From NCBI GenBank assembly GCA_016839765.1, contig JAEOTP010000015.1, forward strand, positions 32,001 through 96,000: a stretch of 64,000 nt of DNA. The letters run 5' to 3'. Every line of letters starts with the position of its first letter. The stretch's first letter is position 1. Both the position numbers and the translations under genes were made by a program. Origin of the DNA: Promethearchaeota archaeon (GTDB lineage Archaea; Asgardarchaeota; Lokiarchaeia; Sigyniarchaeales; SOKP01). Shown here piece after piece: positions 34,448-49,286 of the stretch. The notes beneath the pieces were generated by a model, which was not told the DNA's origin, ran no database searches, and saw only the letters and a program-made list of their open reading frames with translations.

Positions 34448-37400
34448 ATGGAATCCAAAAATATTAAAAAATCTAGTGAAAGAATTGAAAAAGCTACCAC
34501 ATTTCTCACAAGGTTGTGGTGGTTTTTTCTTTTTCTAATCGGGATTCCTTTAGTAATTGCTACTGTTAGCTATTTTATTATCCAATATATCATAAAAGAT
34601 GTTTATTTTTCTATAGGGCTTGCTGTAATTGTATATATGTTTTCAATTTTCTTTTTCTATAAAAGTTTTGACCAATATCGAAAAAAACCTCTTTTTATTA
34701 ACAATCAAAACAACCTTTCTGCCAGAATTCACATACTTTTTATAGTTAGCATCCTATCTTTAGTGGTTACCCCTATTTTCATTTTGGTTGCACCGCAGGG
34801 ATACTATTTTGAATTATTTCCTTTAATTTCGTTCTGCCTTTTATATAACATTATTTATTACTATTATTACTTTCAACCTGTAGAATATTTTGATGTATCT
34901 GAATCAAGATTCAAGCGTAAACTTAGTTTCAAATCAACTTTAAAACAATTTCATAATATAGTGATTTTGATAAATTTCATTATCCATGTATTTTTTTTGA
35001 TTTATACTTATTATACTAAGTTATTATGGCTAATATTGGTAACTTTAGTTACCAATATATTTTTTTATATCTTTACCCTACTATCTACAATTAAGCTAAA
35101 GAAAAAGATAAGGGATGCTATCGAGAAAGGAGTACTATTTCAAGAATATATAATCAAATTTAAGCAAAAATTTTCTGTATCAATTATCAGTCTTTCTTTT
35201 TTATTATTAATACAATTACCATTTGATATCCTTCTTTTTAATACTTTATCTGGTGTTGTTTATACCAATTTAGATTATATATTATTTGCGTTTGGAGCTA
35301 TAATTTTCATTTTCTTATATTTAAAACTAAGGATTTATATTTCAATACATTACAAAAGAAATCTATTGATATTAAATGGGAATAAATTAAATAATTCAAA
35401 TCAAGAACCTTCAGATTTCTTAATTAAATATCAGAAATGGAACATGATATTATCAATATTTTTCATTGTCTTTACCTCTTTATTTTCTTTAGGAATTAAT
35501 TTCCCAATTATAATTGTAATCAGCATTCCAGTAATCATTATTTCTACTTATTTTGAGCAAAAAGCAAATTATTGCCCAAAGAAATATAGTCGATATGTAT
35601 ATCTTTTAAGTAGTGTAATATTATTGGGATTTGGTATTTTTTGGATTTTACCCTCCTTTTTCGATACTCTGAGTTTAGAGATTCAATTAATTATATTTCT
35701 TGTGAGTTTCTATTTGGATTTACAAATTTTTATTCAATATGACTATTTTGATAGGAATAAAATTATATTTATACAACACCTATTAGCTTTTACTTGTTTC
35801 TTAGTAATTACTTACTCATTTTATCCAATTATTTCATCAATTTATTTTGATTTTCTTATTGAACCCTTATTGATTAATATCGTCAATATCCTTTTCTATG
35901 CATTATTATCTCTCTTAGCATTATTAGGAACATTCTATTATTTATATTTTCGATATTTTAGGAAAAACCAATGGAAGAGTTTCAATCTAATTTTAAATAT
36001 CACTATAATCTCTATTGAAATCCTTTTATTTGCTCTTATAAGTTTGAAGATTTTCATTTCTATGGATGTGATTGCATTTATTAACTATGTTTTAGTTTTT
36101 ACTATTCTTTTACCATTAATTTTTGATTTATTTATCGGATTTAACTATATTCTTGGAATAAATACTGCTAAAAAAAGCTTCAAACAATTATATTCTTCTA
36201 GTTGGATTTTAGTTTTAATGATTTTTACTTTTATTTTTTACTTTACTTTTAATAATTTTATATTCCTAATTGCTGATTTATTATATCTCTCTGCTCTTTC
36301 TCAGATTTTATTAAAATTTGGAGAAGAAATTGACCAAATTTCTCACGAAACTTTTAGTAAGGTTATGAAATTTAATTCCGTTTTTATTATTATAGAGATT
36401 TCTTGCTTAATTTTTTCAATATCGTATATAAATTTCGCTTTTATCGGAATTATCAATAATATTTTACTCTCTTGCTATATTACATTGATTTTTAATGCAT
36501 TTTTGTGTAATATTCTAAAAGAAAAACTGTTTTCAAAATCAATAGTAGTATTAATTAATGAAATTTGTTTATTATTTACTACAGGACTCACTTTTTATTA
36601 TCTATATCAATATACTTTCGGATCTTATTATATTTATGTTCTACCAATCCTGTTTTCCAGCCTTTTCTTTTTCCTCCCAATATATTATACCAAATCCTTA
36701 AAAAAGTATCCAAATTTGATAAAAAATATTACCACCGTAGCCAGTATAGTATTTTCTATTTCTTTATCCCTCATACCCACAATCTTGAGCTTGGAATTTG
36801 TAAGATTAGGTAAATATGTTGATTTAATTACCATTTTCAATTTAACAGCTTTCATTATTTATGGAATTTTACTTTTTATTATAGCTTTCTCGCGCAAGCT
36901 GAAAATTAGGGAAAAAAGAATAAAATTAGTATTAATAATACAGATATTAATCGAATTTATTTTGGCAGTAACAGCAGTATTTTATTACGTGAGTATTGCT
37001 TTAAAGGGTACCCTTTTTGAGTATTCAGTTCCTTTAGTAGCCACCTCAGCATTTCTTTTTATTCCTTTTATATTCTTATATAAAAAGCAATTTATTGGTA
37101 TCAAAATAAATAAATTGCTTCTTTTTTCTAATTTTATTTTTCTCTGGGGTAGTATAATATCAATTCCATCCATTTATAGTATAGAATTTTTCAGATTGGG
37201 TAATTATTTGGAATTTTACTATATGTTAATAATAATTATCGTATTATTCTATGGATTTTTGAAATTTTTATATCCTTTATCTAAATACATCGAAATTAAA
37301 GATAAATTTAATTATATAATATACACATTACAAATTTTCACTTGGTTTATTATTACTATTGCTATTTCTTTAATTATTCCTTTTAACTTTTTAATCCAAT

Positions 37401-40400
37401 CGCTTAATTGGTTAAATACTTTAGTAGTATGCAGTACATTTTTATTATTTTTTGGATTAAATATTATTAATCTCCCTCAGATAGAAAATTTCAAACAGAT
37501 AGTTTTTGAAAATAAAAAAAGCAAGTTAGATTTTTATAAAATTTATAAAATTTATGAATATTACAAAAATATAATATATTTTGGGTTAATTTTCTCAGTT
37601 TCTTCCTTAATATATTCATTAATTCAATCTTTGAATTTACCCTACCTAATTTTTCAGTCTAGCAATAGTTTGATGACAATTTCTTTTGATTTAGGTATTT
37701 TTTCAGGTATTTCTCTAATTATATTTCATCTGAGTAATTTACTTATTGAAATTGAATTTAGGAAAACAAAAGAAATAATTGAAACACTTTTATGGTTAGC
37801 TATAAAATTCAATCTACTATTAATTATATCATTATTCCCTTTTCAGATCTCAATTATTAATAGGATTTTTTTAATAATTTTAATATTTACCGTATTAAGT
37901 CCAATTACGATTAAATTTTTTAGAAATCACTTTATCATTTTAGAAGAAACTTATTTAAACACTAAAAAAATTATAGGAATCTTATTTTTTATTTCATTAT
38001 TAGGTTTTTTTCTTGATTTTTTGTGGAATATTTATATAAGTGTACCATATTTTTGGAGTAATACTTATGTTTTACTTTCTCTAATCATTAGTATAGCTTT
38101 ATTATTTTCTAACTATTATTTTTCAGTTTTTAATGATTATATCGAGAAAAAATCTGAGCTTAATATTTATGGACTCTACTTTCAATCTTTTCTAATTTTT
38201 ATAATTTTATTATTCATGAATATAGGCCCCTCTTTAGTTCTTTTAGTGATCATTTTTATAATCCTCTATCGGAAAAGGATTAGGAATATATACTTACGTT
38301 TAGTCAACTACCTGGTAGGTAGCTATGTGTGTTTGATAGTAGTGAATATATTTATAATTAGTTTCGATCTACTATCTACATTTATATATATTCATCCTGG
38401 ATTTTATGTATGTGTTTATATATTATCATTTATTTTAATATTATTCATATCAATTATTCTAAATATCAAGAAGATCAATGTTTTAGAAGAATATTTATTA
38501 GATTTATTAATTCCTAGTTTAATTTTTACGTCAATATTAATTTTTAATCTCATTCCTCTTTTTTATAATATAACAGTTTCTGTTGCAATTCTCTTACTTT
38601 TATTAAGTATCTTCTTTTATCGTCAAGAAGATAAAAGGTATATATGGTTTATTCGCCCTTGTGCCTTATTATTTTTATTTGACCTAATAAGTATTAGCTC
38701 TTATTTCATAATATTTAGCTTACCTCTTTATTATGAATACAATCTGATTCTAAGCTCTACACTTACCTTTAGCATAATAGGTTTTTGTTTTGCCTTGTTT
38801 TTTCATGATTTACGAGGTAAACTAAAAAGGAGATTAATTTCCATTATTCTTATATTAAGTGTAGCTAGTTCTTTCACATTTTCTTATCTTCTCTTAAAAA
38901 TTTCGTTCTCTCTCACTCTATCTGATATTTATCCATGGATTATTGCTGGAAATATTGCTATTATTCTTTCATATATTGCCATTGGAATTTATCAATGGAA
39001 AATATCATGGGCAATTTGGAAAGCAGGCTATTGGATTTGGATATTTACCCCTATAATTAATTATTTAATAATTGCTGAATCTTTTACTGAAATTAATATC
39101 TATACCAATGCTCTGAATTTTTTTGGGATACCTATTTATGGCTCACATTTGATTGCTTTTGTTATTTGTTTATTAATATCTTTACCTTTCTGGTATACTT
39201 GGATAAAAGAACATTTTAACCAAGTCTTATTTATCATTTGGGGATTAAGTTTATTTTTGATCTATTGGTTTAGTCAAAATGCATTTTTTGGATCTACCTT
39301 TTTAATTAATTTATCATTTGTAGGAATATCTATAATCTTTTTAATGCCTATTTTTTATAGGTTAAGACTCTGGAAAATACTTTCGATTTTGTGGCTAGCT
39401 TTTACTAGTATTTTAACAATTTTCGTTTCCTATCTATTTTTAGAAACTAAATTGGGATTAGACATGATCATATCAATGGATTTAATTCTAATCGGATTTC
39501 TATTTATAATTTTCTCTTTCTTTCCAAATATAAGGGCATTAAAAAATATTGTACTAATTATCGCTTATTCTATCGCAATAACTGGTATCTTTCTAACAAT
39601 ATTGAATTTAATTTTTTCAATTACTTACAACCTGCCTGTGTCAATCAATATGTCTTTCATTATAATAGCATTTAGTCTATTTACTTCTCGAATATTGAAA
39701 TTAAATCGAAAATTATTCAATTTTTTAATTTCTACAATTTTAACTATTAACTTTTCACTTTTAACATTCTTTACTTTTAGTTTAATTCCAAATTTTGAGC
39801 TATTCGCTCTATTTTTCGCTATAAGCGTTTGTGGAGGCTCCCTTCTAATATTTAATCGCTATAGGATGATTTCCCCTATTAAAAAGATTATACCATTAAT
39901 GATTCTTTCTACTGGTGTTGCATTAACATTGTCTTCCTTAATTTATATTTTTATACCGAATTCCTTTTTTATTGTATCTGCCACATTTATTGCTGTAATT
40001 CTATTATTAAATTACCCTACTTTAGAGTATATTCGCCATATATTATTGTATTTAGTTCCAATACCTTTCTGTTTGGTTATTTTACACTTTTTGTCATTAA
40101 TAGGACTATTTCAACCATTATTAAATTTAATTTTAATTGGATTGATTTTATATACCTCAATTTTTCAAATTTTTACTTATTTGAAATATGGTACGGTTAA
40201 GATAGTTAATCTTTTGTCTTTTATATTGAATTCAACCTATCTTTCATTATTAATTACAATTCTTAGTCCTGTTACGATTTTATATCAAATTCTCGAATTT
40301 TGTATAATTTGGTCAATTTTAATAATATTTTGTATTAACTATCTTGAAAGGGCAGGTCAGGAACTTGTTAAAGAAAAAACTATTTCGACTTTTTTAAGAA

Positions 40401-42964
40401 TTAGTAGCTTAATCACAGTATTGCTTTATTTTGAAATAGCTGTTCTAATTTTTGTGGTATTAAATGAGTTCTTGGTATTAGAAATTACGATAAATATTGT
40501 AGCATTCTTTGGAACTTTATTTCTATTATCATTTCTAGATATTATTTTATTGAAAAGAGTGAATAAGAAAATAATTTACCCAATTAACATTCTCAGCTAC
40601 TTATTTATTTCAATTAGCTTTTTTATCTTTTTCAATCAATTTTTAGCTATAAATGTGCAATTAATCTTCTTAAATCTAATAATATTATTCACACTGCAGT
40701 TCTATACCGTTTATATTATTTTTGCTTTCTTAAAACAATATGAGAGTTTTGATAAGGATAAATTAAGTACTTATCGCAAAATTATTCAAACAATTCAAGT
40801 AAATATTATATTTTTCATTATGGGTTTATTTGGATCCTCTTATTTCACAACACTTATCTTAGATAGTGAACCGATTCTTAGTGGGCTGCCTTCAATTTTC
40901 CTATTCTTAATGATATTTACTTTCATACTTTTTACTCTTAATCATATAGTTAGGAATAAATTTAGGCAACACATTTTATTTGGATACTATATCATATTTT
41001 TCATTAATTTCGCATTCTTTTGGGTCTCTTTTATAATTATTTTTAATCTGATTAACACGCTTTCCATTAGTCTATTATTATTTACTATTACAATATTAAT
41101 TTCTTATCTTGTTTATTCAGTTGGTAATATTTACAAGGAAAAAGTAAAAATAGGGCAAATTAATAAAATATATTCATTAATCATCTTCTTTCTTTACTTA
41201 GAGATTTCAATAATCCTCTTTGGATTATCTTATATATATCTTAATATATTTGAAAGCATTCTTATTTCACAAATAGCCTTATTTTTGATTTCCATAATGG
41301 AAAGGTATATAATACGAAAAGTTAAAACTACTATAGTTTTTATCCTCCATACAATAAGTTATTTTAATATTAGCTGGTCTCTCTTTGTTGTTATATTTCA
41401 ATTTACTCAAAATATTTTTGATTTAAATCTAATTTTCTTTATTCTTATGCAGTTTTATACAAATAATTCGTATTTTATTACTAGATCTAAATTTAATTTA
41501 TCTAAAGAACCTGATTTTAAGAAGTGGAAGCTAATTAGACAGAAAGTAATTGGATCTTGTTTTTATTTAACTTTATTATTATATATTCTAAATTATTTAA
41601 TACTCGTTATTACCGAAATTCAATTAATTATTTTAATTTTAGGCGTAATAATTCATGGATTAATGTATATTGATAAGTTTATCTTTAAATTCTTAGCTGA
41701 ACTTTCAAAGTATGTAATAATTTTCTCAATTTTCTTGATATTAGGCACCTCATTTTTATATTCTTTAGGTTGGGTTTTTATTTTTTCATTTCAAATAATC
41801 CCCTTAATAATTCTTTTAGTTTTACTCGAAATAACATATCTCATAAAATTATTTGAATTATGGGACGTTAAAAAAGTCAACTTTTCTAAAATTAGAAATC
41901 CCTTGATAAATTTGTACTATATGAACTTTTTAATATGGCCGTTTTTTTATTTAGGCTTCGAAATTTTTAATATCTTAGCTATAATGTTGATCTTTTCAAT
42001 TATCTTGATATTTTTATCTGTAATAGATATACGTATCAATACAATTAATCAAAAATTAAGAATAACAATATTAAAGACTGGTTATATTATGTTTGTCTCA
42101 TTATTATCTTTAGAAATATTTTTCTTTCTGGAATTTGTAATTCAACCAAATCTTCTATTCAATTTTTCAGTATCAGGATTATTTTTCCTCATTACAATTG
42201 GATTCATAATAAAGCCATTCAAAAGACATAGAGCTCTTTCATTCTTTTATTGGTTATCTATTTTTTCACTGATAAGTCTAATAATATATTTTGCTTATTT
42301 AAGTGGTTGGAGTTTCACAGTATTGCTAGTGGGCATTGTATTATATCCTTTCATATTTATGCTTGAAGAATTAAAAGAATTATTTAACCATTTGTTAGAA
42401 TACCTTCATAAGTTTATTTTAAAGATTAAACGCATTATATCTTTTGTTTATAGAAAATTTATTAATTTCCTTAAAAATAACTTTAGAATAATCCAGATAA
42501 TACTCTCTATATTTATTGGAGCAATAACAGGTATAACTTTCTCAGATATGGTATTAAACATCTTAGATCTATATCATGCAACACTGCTATCTCTTGCTAC
42601 CTTTGGAATTGCTTATGCTATTACAGATTACGTCTGGTATCATACGTACGTTAAAAAATTAGGTGATATTAAACAGATATTTAGGCAAAAATTAAAAATC
42701 TTTATTATAATATGGATAAGTTTTTCCAGCTTTATTTTTGCTTTAATATTACCTATAATAGAATCTATTCTGTATCAAATTTTCCTTATTTTAATACCAT
42801 TTTGGGGATTAGGTGCGATATTAATCTGGGTCGTAAATAGAAAAGAAGCTAAAGAAAAAATTTCAGTTAAAGTGAGATTTTTTATTACCTTATCTACAAT
42901 AATCTTATTTATTGTGTGGATAGGTATTATATTGCTTTGGTACTTTACTGAGGTTCAAACTTAA
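34448..42964 (+). CDS. Giant (2838 aa) polytopic membrane protein of unknown function
   Basis: Uninterrupted 8.5-kb ORF; hydrophobic ~20-aa segments separated by short Lys-rich loops throughout. Confidence 0.8.
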   Translation: MESKNIKKSSERIEKATTFLTRLWWFFLFLIGIPLVIATVSYFIIQYIIKDVYFSIGLAVIVYMFSIFFFYKSFDQYRKKPLFINNQNNLSARIHILFIVSILSLVVTPIFILVAPQGYYFELFPLISFCLLYNIIYYYYYFQPVEYFDVSESRFKRKLSFKSTLKQFHNIVILINFIIHVFFLIYTYYTKLLWLILVTLVTNIFFYIFTLLSTIKLKKKIRDAIEKGVLFQEYIIKFKQKFSVSIISLSFLLLIQLPFDILLFNTLSGVVYTNLDYILFAFGAIIFIFLYLKLRIYISIHYKRNLLILNGNKLNNSNQEPSDFLIKYQKWNMILSIFFIVFTSLFSLGINFPIIIVISIPVIIISTYFEQKANYCPKKYSRYVYLLSSVILLGFGIFWILPSFFDTLSLEIQLIIFLVSFYLDLQIFIQYDYFDRNKIIFIQHLLAFTCFLVITYSFYPIISSIYFDFLIEPLLINIVNILFYALLSLLALLGTFYYLYFRYFRKNQWKSFNLILNITIISIEILLFALISLKIFISMDVIAFINYVLVFTILLPLIFDLFIGFNYILGINTAKKSFKQLYSSSWILVLMIFTFIFYFTFNNFIFLIADLLYLSALSQILLKFGEEIDQISHETFSKVMKFNSVFIIIEISCLIFSISYINFAFIGIINNILLSCYITLIFNAFLCNILKEKLFSKSIVVLINEICLLFTTGLTFYYLYQYTFGSYYIYVLPILFSSLFFFLPIYYTKSLKKYPNLIKNITTVASIVFSISLSLIPTILSLEFVRLGKYVDLITIFNLTAFIIYGILLFIIAFSRKLKIREKRIKLVLIIQILIEFILAVTAVFYYVSIALKGTLFEYSVPLVATSAFLFIPFIFLYKKQFIGIKINKLLLFSNFIFLWGSIISIPSIYSIEFFRLGNYLEFYYMLIIIIVLFYGFLKFLYPLSKYIEIKDKFNYIIYTLQIFTWFIITIAISLIIPFNFLIQSLNWLNTLVVCSTFLLFFGLNIINLPQIENFKQIVFENKKSKLDFYKIYKIYEYYKNIIYFGLIFSVSSLIYSLIQSLNLPYLIFQSSNSLMTISFDLGIFSGISLIIFHLSNLLIEIEFRKTKEIIETLLWLAIKFNLLLIISLFPFQISIINRIFLIILIFTVLSPITIKFFRNHFIILEETYLNTKKIIGILFFISLLGFFLDFLWNIYISVPYFWSNTYVLLSLIISIALLFSNYYFSVFNDYIEKKSELNIYGLYFQSFLIFIILLFMNIGPSLVLLVIIFIILYRKRIRNIYLRLVNYLVGSYVCLIVVNIFIISFDLLSTFIYIHPGFYVCVYILSFILILFISIILNIKKINVLEEYLLDLLIPSLIFTSILIFNLIPLFYNITVSVAILLLLLSIFFYRQEDKRYIWFIRPCALLFLFDLISISSYFIIFSLPLYYEYNLILSSTLTFSIIGFCFALFFHDLRGKLKRRLISIILILSVASSFTFSYLLLKISFSLTLSDIYPWIIAGNIAIILSYIAIGIYQWKISWAIWKAGYWIWIFTPIINYLIIAESFTEINIYTNALNFFGIPIYGSHLIAFVICLLISLPFWYTWIKEHFNQVLFIIWGLSLFLIYWFSQNAFFGSTFLINLSFVGISIIFLMPIFYRLRLWKILSILWLAFTSILTIFVSYLFLETKLGLDMIISMDLILIGFLFIIFSFFPNIRALKNIVLIIAYSIAITGIFLTILNLIFSITYNLPVSINMSFIIIAFSLFTSRILKLNRKLFNFLISTILTINFSLLTFFTFSLIPNFELFALFFAISVCGGSLLIFNRYRMISPIKKIIPLMILSTGVALTLSSLIYIFIPNSFFIVSATFIAVILLLNYPTLEYIRHILLYLVPIPFCLVILHFLSLIGLFQPLLNLILIGLILYTSIFQIFTYLKYGTVKIVNLLSFILNSTYLSLLITILSPVTILYQILEFCIIWSILIIFCINYLERAGQELVKEKTISTFLRISSLITVLLYFEIAVLIFVVLNEFLVLEITINIVAFFGTLFLLSFLDIILLKRVNKKIIYPINILSYLFISISFFIFFNQFLAINVQLIFLNLIILFTLQFYTVYIIFAFLKQYESFDKDKLSTYRKIIQTIQVNIIFFIMGLFGSSYFTTLILDSEPILSGLPSIFLFLMIFTFILFTLNHIVRNKFRQHILFGYYIIFFINFAFFWVSFIIIFNLINTLSISLLLFTITILISYLVYSVGNIYKEKVKIGQINKIYSLIIFFLYLEISIILFGLSYIYLNIFESILISQIALFLISIMERYIIRKVKTTIVFILHTISYFNISWSLFVVIFQFTQNIFDLNLIFFILMQFYTNNSYFITRSKFNLSKEPDFKKWKLIRQKVIGSCFYLTLLLYILNYLILVITEIQLIILILGVIIHGLMYIDKFIFKFLAELSKYVIIFSIFLILGTSFLYSLGWVFIFSFQIIPLIILLVLLEITYLIKLFELWDVKKVNFSKIRNPLINLYYMNFLIWPFFYLGFEIFNILAIMLIFSIILIFLSVIDIRINTINQKLRITILKTGYIMFVSLLSLEIFFFLEFVIQPNLLFNFSVSGLFFLITIGFIIKPFKRHRALSFFYWLSIFSLISLIIYFAYLSGWSFTVLLVGIVLYPFIFMLEELKELFNHLLEYLHKFILKIKRIISFVYRKFINFLKNNFRIIQIILSIFIGAITGITFSDMVLNILDLYHATLLSLATFGIAYAITDYVWYHTYVKKLGDIKQIFRQKLKIFIIIWISFSSFIFALILPIIESILYQIFLILIPFWGLGAILIWVVNRKEAKEKISVKVRFFITLSTIILFIVWIGIILLWYFTEVQT

Positions 42965-45930: not shown

Positions 45931-46269
45931 ATGAATATTCAAGAATTTAATAAATCAAGAAAAATAATAATGGATAAAATGAAAGAGAAAGACCAATTTT
46001 TTAAGGATTTTGGTAAGCTTGATGATAGGGCATTCTCAGATGGTTTTATCCCTAAAAAATATAAAGAATTAACTATGATTTCTATATCAATTGTTACAAA
46101 ATGTAAGGAATGTATCTCCTACCACATTCAAGAGAGTGTTAATAGGGATTCTAGCCCTTCAGAAATAGTAGACGCAATAAAAATGGGGATGATGGCAGGT
46201 GGTTCCACAACCTATCCATATGTAAGACATGCGTTTAACACCTTAATTGAATTAAAAGTATTAGAATAA
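45931..46269 (+). CDS. Carboxymuconolactone decarboxylase/AhpD-family protein
   Basis: KYKEL...CKECISYH. Confidence 0.88.
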   Translation: MNIQEFNKSRKIIMDKMKEKDQFFKDFGKLDDRAFSDGFIPKKYKELTMISISIVTKCKECISYHIQESVNRDSSPSEIVDAIKMGMMAGGSTTYPYVRHAFNTLIELKVLE

Positions 46270-46324
46270 TCGTAAGGGTAAATGCCTTATTTTTATATAA
46301 AATAAATTTAGGGGTTAAAATTTT

Positions 46325-46712
46325 AAAAGAGAAAAGGTTCGAGAAGCTACAATGACAACCAAAAGGTCTTCGCGACAACCAAAAGATTGTTATTGTGTGG
46401 TAATGTCTTCCTTTCCTAGGATGGGAAAGCTCAATATATTACTAATACTTCAAATCAAAATACGGTATGGAAAGAATCATCATCCGTAAGAATAATCGCT
46501 TACTCCTATGAACGATATTATCGTTTGATAACTTCACCAATTCGTTAGAATAGGCCAGATTAATATCAAATACAAACCAAAAGGCTGATATTTTTAATTC
46601 CGATCGTGTTTATAACGCACAATCACCTTTCATATCGCTATTGATTATCTGTGGACCAATGCATTGAGGTTACATTACCTCTTCTCGACGTTCACATCAA
46701 AGATGTGAACAA
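46325..46712 (-). ncRNA. Candidate ~390-nt structured non-coding RNA
   Basis: Nested long-range stems, internal hairpins, TATA-like box at 46731-46740, 3' pyrimidine tract, no ORF of 60 aa or more. Confidence 0.6.
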
Positions 46713-46877
46713 TTATAATTGTGATAAGTTTATATTTAAATAAACCTATTAACGGGTTATTAAAGAAAAATGTCGCTAGATCTAAACTATATTTTTTTTA
46801 AGTCGGAATTCAACTTTACTTTCTTAATCAGGATTATGTTGTCAAAAAAGACATTAACTAAATCTATCTTTAAATTT

Positions 46878-49286
46878 TTATCCAATAAAACAAGATAAAT
46901 TTCTTTGGTTAGATTTTTTCTTATAATCTCGCTTTAACAATTCCTCAAGTTCAGGAAATTTGAAAGGAAAAATATTTTCGAAAGCTCTCTTTAATAATTC
47001 AACGTACTTCTTTTGATCGTATTGATGTATCTTTTCATCATAGAGATCAGAGAGAATAACCTTCCGTTCAGGGAAATCAGGATCGGCCTCTGCATTAAGA
47101 ATAATATATCGTACATTTTTTCCAGGGGTTGCGATAATACCAGAATCTTCTAATTGTCTGGCAGCTACAGCTTGATAGGAGTTTACTTTATATGCTGATG
47201 GCTTACGAGAGATTCTTTGTTTGATTGTAAGCTCTTGGCGAGATATTTTCCCGGAATAGACTCTATCAGTATATTCATAGAGTTTTCTTTTTGCCCTTGG
47301 AATCCTTTTTATAAACTCATCAACGGTTTGAGCGCCTTTGAATACATCAATAAAGGCACATTGGGCATCTTTCACAATAGTGGGCATATCTCTGCGCCGA
47401 ACTTCGATACCCCTAACTTTAATCTCTCCTGTACTTTTTATGCCCCAATAATGACTAAGAGCAGGAATATCTGGTTCAGCTCTAGAGGGAAGAAATACAA
47501 TAATATTATATCTACCTTCCCAGCTCATTGGAATGCTTGTATGTTCCGATATTCTATCTGCAATTTTTTTAGTAATATCCTCAAATTCCTCTGGTGATTT
47601 TCCCTTTGTATCTTGAAGCCATATGGAATCAACAATACCATGAATGATTTTGCAACTGTATGCTTCGGCAATTTCAGCTGCACGCATAAGAAATTCGCGT
47701 GCAAATGCACAAACGGTTTGATGAGCTTCAATTTTACCGAAGCGGGCATTTTTAAATCCTAAATATCCAAAACTTACAACAAGCACCCATTTTAAGGCAA
47801 TATCGGTAAATTTATAGCGAAGATTTCCTGTTTTTCGAACATATTCCTTATATTGCAACCTTTTTCTTAGAGGAAGTTTTATTGATTTTGAGATTATTCC
47901 TTCTCTTTTTGAGCAGATATGAAAATCCAATCCTGGTACTTTCATCCCTGTTCCATCATCTTTGCAGCATTTACAATTGAGAGTTTCAGAAGAAATATTA
48001 TAATTGGCCATTATGGATGGATACATTGAAGAGAAATCTAACTCTACGACATTATCAAAAACACCAATTATCGGTTCAAAGATGTGACCCCCACGATCAC
48101 TTCTTATTAAATCCATTGCTGAATTAAATCCCTCAGGACTTTTTTTGAATGGAGCAATCAAATGATCAAGTTTATAAGCATTGTAGTATTGAATCGACTG
48201 TAGTGCGCCTCCAATTGTTATTCGAGATAATCTTTGTAATGATACTCGCGAAATACGGGCAACTTCAACAACACCCGGGATATTTCCTTCTGTAAAATGA
48301 AGGCTTGCATATGAGGCAGTATCTAAATGGAGCCTCCCAGCAAAATATACTTGCGTTTTCGAACGATGGAATATGATTCCGTATGACATATAATGATTTG
48401 CCCCTCCTGAGAGATTAAAAATGCATTTTTCCAATGGTATTCGATCTCGAGAAAAATAAAGCTTCCTTGATACACCATGTATTGAAGCTCGCGCTGCTAG
48501 ATATGGAAACATGAATTCATCCCCATTTTGTGTGAGAATTATATCAGGATCAAGTTTTTCGATGGCTTTACTTAATAGTTCTAAATTTTCCGCTTCATCT
48601 CTTCGACTTATAACATATGTTCGTTTTTTATACCCATCTGCGCGCGGAACATTGTTCTCATCATTTTCAACCATGCTAATCTCAATATGATCAATCGGAT
48701 CATTGTAATACGGCCTTATTCCTTGATGTTTTACTTTGACATCAATCCATACAGCCTTTAGAGGAGGTAAATCATAGAATAGTTTTTCATTGTCATCTTT
48801 CAACTCTAGCGAGACAAGCCTTGTTATACTGCCCTTTCTATTCCGATACTTTTCAACTCTCACTCTAAACTGAGAGAAAGACATTGGAAACAAGTCATTA
48901 ACGTAGTAATACATTTGAGCAATAGGAAGATCGGTATTATACAAAGTAAATAGATCGATTTCATCAATTTCTTGAATTGCTTTCTTAAATACTGAAGGCT
49001 TTATCGCTGAAACTCCAAGAATTTTTGTCTTTTTATGATCCTCGAGGCGAACATATTTCTCACAAATTCTCACTTTATTGACGTTGTGATTTTGTTGAAG
49101 GATATGTTTTAACCTTTCAAGATCATTACCTACGCTTATCTTTGGTACTGCAAAGAACTCTGGATGGAATATTTCATAAATTTTCAGAACCTTTTGCTCT
49201 TTGGTAGGTTTTACCCAAAGAATTACTCCATCTCTAAATGTAGAAACATCTAAAAGCCAGCCATCAAATTTTTTTCTTGAATTCAA
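46878..49286 (-). CDS. polB2: Family B DNA polymerase, PolB2 type
   Basis: DFSSMYPS, CKCC, LKWVLVVSFGYLGF, motif C GIVDS instead of GDTDS, degenerate exonuclease. Confidence 0.9.
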   Translation of the reverse strand: MNSRKKFDGWLLDVSTFRDGVILWVKPTKEQKVLKIYEIFHPEFFAVPKISVGNDLERLKHILQQNHNVNKVRICEKYVRLEDHKKTKILGVSAIKPSVFKKAIQEIDEIDLFTLYNTDLPIAQMYYYVNDLFPMSFSQFRVRVEKYRNRKGSITRLVSLELKDDNEKLFYDLPPLKAVWIDVKVKHQGIRPYYNDPIDHIEISMVENDENNVPRADGYKKRTYVISRRDEAENLELLSKAIEKLDPDIILTQNGDEFMFPYLAARASIHGVSRKLYFSRDRIPLEKCIFNLSGGANHYMSYGIIFHRSKTQVYFAGRLHLDTASYASLHFTEGNIPGVVEVARISRVSLQRLSRITIGGALQSIQYYNAYKLDHLIAPFKKSPEGFNSAMDLIRSDRGGHIFEPIIGVFDNVVELDFSSMYPSIMANYNISSETLNCKCCKDDGTGMKVPGLDFHICSKREGIISKSIKLPLRKRLQYKEYVRKTGNLRYKFTDIALKWVLVVSFGYLGFKNARFGKIEAHQTVCAFAREFLMRAAEIAEAYSCKIIHGIVDSIWLQDTKGKSPEEFEDITKKIADRISEHTSIPMSWEGRYNIIVFLPSRAEPDIPALSHYWGIKSTGEIKVRGIEVRRRDMPTIVKDAQCAFIDVFKGAQTVDEFIKRIPRAKRKLYEYTDRVYSGKISRQELTIKQRISRKPSAYKVNSYQAVAARQLEDSGIIATPGKNVRYIILNAEADPDFPERKVILSDLYDEKIHQYDQKKYVELLKRAFENIFPFKFPELEELLKRDYKKKSNQRNLSCFIG

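Follow-up and report, generated by a model that had tools for sequence, protein, structure and literature searches.

A predicted family of large, modular non-coding RNAs in Promethearchaeia (Loki-type Asgard archaea)

The stretch of DNA analysed here (in the following: the window; 64,000 nucleotides from a contig of a Promethearchaeota archaeon) contains a gap of 608 bp between a gene of the CMD family (45931-46269, plus strand) and a gene for a family-B polymerase (46878-49286, minus strand). The initial annotation had described this spacer as free of ORFs of 60 aa or more, and had proposed that it encodes an independently transcribed large non-coding RNA of an unknown class on the minus strand. 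An ORF check found no ORF of at least 60 aa in 46270-46877, and the proposal itself is supported, as promoter, fold and T-run are kept in homologs and there is no match to Rfam. We conclude that the locus from 46710 to approximately 46330 on the minus strand very probably encodes a non-coding RNA of ~380 nt as a stand-alone gene, present in a single copy. The CMD-family gene lies downstream of this gene, in convergent orientation. A few kb away from the locus there is also a giant ORF of 2838 aa (34448-42964, plus strand). The predicted features of the RNA gene are collected in Table 1.

Table 1. Predicted features of the RNA gene, its promoter and its terminator, with positions in the window
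Feature	Position	Strand	Remarks
Extended conserved promoter	46733..46802	-	same blocks with the same spacing in ~48 members
Promoter block CTTAAAAAAAA	46802-46792	-	
Promoter block TAGCGACA	46778-46771	-	
Promoter block TAATAACCCG	46762-46753	-	
Promoter block TTAATAG	46752-46746	-	
TATA box TTTAAATA	46740-46733	-	22 nt before the first base of the 5' hairpin
Predicted mature or primary transcript, type-A member, ~378-385 nt	46326..46710	-	TATA-hairpin spacing, U-run 46325-46337, MFE z-score, homolog alignments
5'-terminal hairpin GUUCACAUC-UUU-GAUGUGAAC, perfect 9 bp	46690..46710	-	begins at the predicted start; 2 compensatory pairs in the family (helix 1)
P1, 5' strand UCGAGAAG, closing helix	46681..46688	-	partner 46339-46346; 99.5% of cells pair
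P2, 5' strand GGUAAUGU	46672..46679	-	partner 46399-46406; compensatory changes in 3 of 7 pairs (helix 3)
P3, 5' strand CUCAAUG.AUUG	46657..46668	-	partner 46430-46441; 5 compensatory pairs in the 27-sequence second-genus alignment
Type-A core, six-way junction	46464..46641	-	domain of covariance model R1; 20 compensatory pairs in helices 4-11
Core J stem	46626-46634/46466-46474	-	
Core hairpin H1	46601-46625	-	
Core hairpin H2	46562-46600	-	
Core hairpin H3	46534-46557	-	
Core hairpin H4, GUUAUC-AAAC-GAUAAC	46517-46532	-	near-invariant
Core hairpin H5	46479-46516	-	
P3, 3' strand	46430..46441	-	partner 46657-46668
Side hairpin He, CUUUCC...GGAAAG	46411..46429	-	MFE fold; second-genus equivalent with 3 compensatory pairs
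P2, 3' strand ACAUUACC	46399..46406	-	partner 46672-46679; fold and alignment
Side hairpin Hf, long, on the 3' side before P1'	46349..46396	-	pair 326-373 changes from AU to GC; second-genus equivalent covaries
P1, 3' strand CUUCUCGA	46339..46346	-	partner 46681-46688
Oligo-U terminator, tail CCTTTTCTCTTTT / CCUUUUCUCUUUU, directly after P1'	46325..46337	-	C-rich and then U-rich tail in all members

The start of the gene is marked by an elaborate upstream region. Over the family, its layout is CWTAAAAAA - ~17 nt - CGAC(A)AAA - ~6 nt - TAATAAYCCC TTAATAG - 5 nt - TTTAAATA - 22 nt - hairpin (~48 members). With the usual archaeal spacing between TATA box and start, transcription would begin at about G46710, and thus the RNA would begin with the 5' hairpin itself. 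In the 3.3-Mb genome there is a single occurrence of the composite promoter motif; the genes for RNase P RNA and SRP RNA do not carry it. Note that the conserved region, with four blocks besides the TATA box, extends ~90 nt before the start, a length that is unusual among archaeal promoters and suggests that a dedicated transcription factor is involved. That the gene is transcribed we infer from these conserved signals, and their conservation supports it well.

The nested long-range stems described in the initial annotation, namely TCGAGAAG (46339-46346/46681-46688), GGTAATGT (46399-46406/46672-46679) and CTCAAT (46430-46435/46663-46668), are present, and the inner hairpins, the minus-strand TATA box, the perfect hairpin of 9 bp and the T-run tail likewise lie where it had placed them. 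Both the MFE fold and RNAalifold on the homologs recovered the nested P1, P2 and P3 helices together with the inner hairpins. We compared the folding energy with that of dinucleotide shuffles. On the minus strand the MFE is -111.3 kcal/mol, as compared to -85.2 +/- 5.3 kcal/mol for the shuffled sequences (z = -4.92), and none of the 100 shuffles was as good; since the value is beyond the range of the shuffles, the fold is more than what is expected by chance. The corresponding z-score for the plus strand is -3.21. A motif that occurs three times in the RNA, CUUUUGGUU, was considered and rejected: its loop letters vary in the homologs (UUAC, UUCC, GUGA, AUUA), so that these are merely small hairpins.

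A BLAST search found full-length relatives with 77-97% identity in five species of the same genus, and two relatives of ~670 nt with an insertion of ~315 nt after P3. We also built a covariance model, R1, on the central domain (the type-A core); it matches exactly one place per genome in 39 of the 135 genomes of the taxonomic family, with scores from 59 to 197 bits. In an alignment of 27 type-A sequences (75 pairs in 11 helices), 96.6% of the cells form standard pairs, and 26 of the 75 pairs show changes on both sides; none of 500 shuffles reached these values of pairing and compensation. When the partners were slid by one to three columns as a control, pairing fell to 35-47%. The covariation in homologs which the initial annotation had named as a check is therefore present. 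When RNAalifold was run on the second genus by itself, every helix came out, P3, He and Hf among them, and 37 of 114 pairs showed compensatory changes. P1, a helix of 7-8 bp (CGAGAAG/CUUCUCG), has an invariant sequence in type A, type B and the multi-unit forms.

The alignment also speaks for the strand. The initial annotation had called the G-U evidence mixed, and this does not hold once homologs are used, as we count 231 cells with G-U and 28 with A-C. If the structure is read on the opposite strand, pairing reaches only 86.6%. The excess of G-U together with the orientation of promoter and terminator places the RNA on the minus strand of the window.

A naive all-against-all covariation scan for pseudoknots gave mostly phylogenetic noise, from which one isolated long-range pair stood out. 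It is found in the type-A sequences of the second genus (columns 242-243/354-355: UA 19, AU 4, GC 4, UG 2; 100% paired), is absent from the clade of the window, and joins the linker after H5 to the nucleotide just 5' of P1'. Such a pair suggests a tertiary contact in the second genus between the core junction and the junction of P1 and Hf.

Next, we consider how widely the RNA is distributed. As a query for the family we used the motif GAAYRTYGAGAAGNRGTA, which comprises the end of the 5' hairpin, P1 and the start of P2. It matches 48 of the 135 genomes, as compared to 2 for a reversed control; one match, in a third genus, has no promoter and is spurious. When matches of the motif and of R1 are combined, members are found in ~52 of the 135 genomes, all in one family of Promethearchaeia and in two of its 13 genera, that is, in 16 of 42 genomes of the genus of the window and in 36 of 54 genomes of the second genus. 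The order has three further families, and in their 19 genomes no members were found. In part, this patchy distribution could be due to homologs that are too diverged for our probes. A scan of metagenomes with an 18-mer gave 40 loci, only five of which are real members, all on genomic contigs. Peptides of the small ORFs inside the RNA were not found in the protein collection, and full-text searches of the literature did not turn up any account of the RNA.

Throughout the family, one finds the promoter, the 5' hairpin, the helices P1 (invariant), P2 and P3, and a pair of side hairpins. The window has each of these: the promoter blocks, the 5' hairpin (UUGUUCA..UGAAC), P1, P2 and P3, the two side hairpins, and in addition the C/U-rich tail. 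What varies is the interior, and with it the length, which ranges from ~270 to ~740 nt over one-unit, nested and three-unit forms. Type A, to which the window belongs, has the core with the six-way junction and 355-385 nt. Type B, of 270-300 nt, has an unrelated core module that is rich in UUCG and GNRA hairpins. In the nested form, known from two species, B-like modules lie inside a type-A RNA (~670 nt), and in the three-unit form, present at six loci, three complete units follow one another in tandem in what is predicted to be one transcript of ~740 nt. Taken together, the comparison strongly indicates that Promethearchaeia (Loki-type Asgard archaea) have an undescribed RNA family which is modular and variable in size, with a constant base and an exchangeable core.

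The three-unit variants come from the same genus and from one bin of the second genus (L076, L078, L079, L080, L082, L074). Ahead of their internal units, where the 5' hairpin would be, there is a hairpin AUCAUG..CAUGAU; it could be an internal processing signal. The copy number is almost always one, and a few genomes have two genes. For example, in one genome of the second genus (G127, L064:1400-2300) we find two complete type-B genes in tandem, 512 nt apart. Both are equipped with a complete promoter and terminator of their own, and the arrangement is thus a recent duplication of the gene.

What could be the role of such an RNA? We lean towards the view that it is a trans-acting, compactly folded RNA, most likely within an RNP, which follows a modular plan of base and core, has an accessory role and does not work together with PolB2. 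In this view, it would form a stable folded particle, most likely with bound protein, that acts in trans and has both of its ends buried in structure. The invariant platform of 5' hairpin and P1 might be the handle for a protein or a processing enzyme; the actual work would be done by the core modules, whose duplication would raise valency. We call the RNA accessory and not essential, given that there are complete genomes of the same genus in which we did not find it. The idea of an RNP scaffold is our best guess from the architecture and from analogy with other large RNAs.

The closest analogues in kind are the ornate RNAs of bacteria, that is OLE (RF01071), GOLLD (RF01998), ROOL and raiA. 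Like these, the Asgard RNA is several hundred nucleotides long, has a multi-junction fold that is supported by covariation, and has stable tetraloops; like these, it has stand-alone genes with a patchy, lineage-restricted distribution, and the function of the known classes, too, was unknown at their discovery. However, it is a member of none of them. They are bacterial or phage-borne whereas the Asgard RNA is archaeal, and it has no match in sequence or structure to their models: Rfam 15 gave no match to any of the four at the locus (E <= 10) or in five relatives (E <= 1). Furthermore, a constant base with exchangeable cores and with tandem or nested units sets the Asgard RNA apart from them, and so does its promoter, which has an archaeal TATA box and a long stretch of conserved sequence upstream.

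To our knowledge, new large RNA classes with covariation support are rare, and OLE, ROOL, GOLLD and raiA have so far been bacterial or phage-borne. The family described here resides in the archaeal lineage that is closest to eukaryotes, and its building plan is unusual in combining a constant base with swappable, stackable cores and a dedicated, strongly conserved promoter. If the RNA is expressed and abundant, it would point to an RNP or an RNA-only machine of Asgard cells that is as yet unknown. Being small and well defined, the RNA lends itself to cryo-EM, pull-downs and tests of processing in vitro.

A second possibility concerns maturation and could be compatible with the trans-acting RNP. 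At the base of the window RNA, three BHB registers can be drawn. A BHB at this place might be cut by the tRNA-splicing endonuclease and the product ligated into a ring of ~336-340 nt, with the 5' hairpin and the U-tail being discarded. BHB-derived circular RNAs are known from archaea (rRNA intermediates, tRNA introns, the permuted SRP RNA of Thermoproteus), and in the Asgard RNA, too, a BHB-like motif can be drawn at the base. One of the registers, UCGA[GAA]GAGG.UAAUG ... CAUUG[UAG]CUUC.UCGA with the bulges at 46684-46682 and 46349-46347, is shown here as an example; the canonical arrangement of a 3-nt bulge, a 4-bp helix and a 3-nt bulge can be drawn. Similar drawings are possible in most of the 48 members checked, in ~33 of them at the base of P1, and a cut there would account for P1 being invariant while the other helices covary.

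On the other hand, the BHB conformers have energies of -86.7 and -90.9 kcal/mol as compared to -108.4 kcal/mol for the MFE fold, and are thus less stable by 17-22 kcal/mol than the fold that covariation supports. They disrupt P2 and Hf, both of which are backed by compensatory changes. The register varies between subfamilies, and runs of purines and pyrimidines permit several registers by chance; the motif is not conserved in all subfamilies, as none of the type-B members of the second genus shows it. Strong conservation would also be unexpected for a 5' hairpin that is discarded. Altogether, we regard excision of a ring as unlikely.

Circularisation is also an optional part of a bolder proposal, which we consider something of a long shot: an Asgard-specific new class of RNA particle, in which an abundant, possibly circularised modular scaffold docks a dedicated protein or processing machine with its base and builds a multivalent RNP or RNA-only assembly with its cores, and in which the layout of the gene foreshadows that of eukaryotic Pol III type-3 genes. 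Eukaryotic genes of this type, such as those for 7SK and U6, have a hairpin at the 5' end of the RNA, a 3' oligo-U and gene-external promoter blocks. The Asgard gene resembles them in its 5'-end hairpin, its 3' oligo-U and the blocks upstream of the TATA box, but this is a resemblance only, and there is no similarity to 7SK or U6 in sequence or by model. As termination at oligo-T and a TATA box are generic for archaeal RNA polymerase, the likeness may be trivial.

Instead of an RNP, the RNA could be a protein-free, self-assembling or catalytic large RNA, comparable to the cages of ROOL and GOLLD or to a new ribozyme, with the duplication of modules tuning the assembly. The ornate multi-junction architecture, the variable number of units, the frequent UUCG and GNRA tetraloops in the relatives and the covarying long-range pair of the second genus are all in line with this idea. 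Against it, we see no match to any model of a ribozyme or ornate RNA, and we were not able to find a conserved candidate active site. We think the protein-free variant rather improbable.

The neighbour that invites a functional interpretation is the polymerase upstream (46878-49286). It is a PolB2-like family-B polymerase in which Exo I reads DVK, the aspartate of Exo II is lost, and motif C is HGIVDS, as compared to YIDTDG in Pfu-type enzymes (YxDTDS/G). Orthologues are present in 80 species, with 56-97% (mostly 72-97%) aa identity. PolB2 is thus under selection, although it appears to be catalytically impaired. Several contigs with orthologues at 72-97% identity (L145, L206, L139-L141, L171) are titled Nanopelagicaceae bacterium, Nitrosopumilaceae archaeon, Odinarchaeota, Hermodarchaeota, Hodarchaeota or Thorarchaeota; these are likely mis-binned contigs or inconsistent public labels.

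The degenerate exonuclease motifs and HGIVDS make a non-canonical role of PolB2 conceivable, and the RNA gene lies directly downstream of PolB2, co-oriented, in 23 of the 48 family loci, in both genera. One could take this to mean that the RNA is a cofactor of the inactivated polymerase, such as a template, primer, guide or chaperone, and that both form one functional cassette. Such a partnership would predict that the two genes occur together and side by side, and this is not what we see. Among 75 PolB2 loci with enough flanking sequence, 20 carry the RNA and 55 do not. In five complete genomes of the same genus PolB2 is present, yet no RNA gene follows. Where the second genus has type A, the RNA gene follows an unrelated small ORF and is ~500 kb away from PolB2 on a closed chromosome, and at the PolB2 site the entire cassette (~480 bp) is cleanly missing. 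The RNA has its own promoter. Finally, genes further downstream are syntenic too, so that the adjacency is ordinary inherited gene order.

The cofactor reading is largely refuted by this phyletic uncoupling, and we consider it very unlikely; as judged from gene order, the link to PolB2 is one of inherited position and not of partnership. The initial annotation had rightly been cautious in calling a functional link speculative. The adjacency is a tempting functional clue, yet it is only gene order. The other neighbours do not offer a better one: they are heterogeneous (CMD, GyrI-like, NMO, gelsolin, zinc ribbon and unknowns), and the small ORF upstream of the second-genus type-A genes occurs in 84 of 135 genomes, whether or not these have the RNA. 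We therefore rejected neighbour genes as an indication of function.

Equally remote is the idea that the RNA is a mobile or selfish cassette, for example a MITE-like or satellite element, or the remnant of one. It would fit with the patchy distribution, with the clean presence/absence polymorphism of the whole cassette, with its relocation in one clade and with the tandem duplicate genes of one genome (L064). However, there is one copy per genome. In the 3.3-Mb assembly we find a single full copy; the sole other BLAST match is a 41-nt stretch inside an ORF of 660 aa, which is a chance match. Since the element is single-copy, it is not a MITE. Dispersed copies with target-site features had been named in the initial annotation as signs of a MITE, and we found neither dispersed copies nor terminal inverted repeats or target-site duplications at the boundary between filled and empty sites. 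No transposase adjoins the gene. Five motif matches in viral contigs of IMG/VR are all due to chance, as they lack the promoter and have a GC content of 33-64%. The strong structural covariation, in turn, points to selection on the RNA fold.

The least credible explanation, to which we give next to no weight, is that the RNA is a diverged housekeeping RNA (RNase P/MRP, SRP/7S, C/D or H/ACA sRNA) or a cis-regulatory 3' UTR or leader. The likeness is to archaeal RNase P and SRP RNA, which also have 300-400 nt, paired 5' and 3' ends, a closed multi-helix core, and a single-copy gene with its own promoter. Nevertheless, a search of the whole window with Rfam 15 gave no match at the gathering score. 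At E <= 10, the region 46200-46900 shows only noise from snoPyro_CD (14.8 bits, E = 3) and nothing at E <= 1, and for five other members of the family there is only noise at E <= 1. The locus thus matches no Rfam family, and neither the archaeal RNase P RNA model (RF00373) with its P4/CR-I-CR-V core nor the archaeal SRP RNA model (RF01857) with its helix 5/8 S-domain motifs finds a match there. The initial annotation had seen no signature of these two RNAs, and this is borne out: the RNase P RNA of the genome (C6:6091-6415, 126 bits at a gathering score of 84) and its candidate SRP RNA (C33:47569-47807, 72 bits) are on other contigs, and because both sit elsewhere we reject these identities. 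Moreover, the Asgard RNA is not found in many complete relatives and thus, unlike RNase P and SRP RNA, is neither universal nor essential.

A cis-regulatory leader or 3' UTR was rejected as well, given the conserved TATA box and upstream blocks of the gene itself, the U-run directly after P1' and the convergent CMD-family neighbour. For a C/D box sRNA, which is marked by a K-turn of conserved C (RUGAUGA) and D (CUGA) boxes, one could point to the weak snoPyro_CD match and to a C-box-like GGAUGAUGA at 46479-46487. However, the match is far below the gathering score of 45, and the RNA has ~380 nt as compared to the usual ~50-70 nt. The C-box-like motif is not kept in the homologs, where it becomes GGAUAAAGA or GAAUGAAGA.
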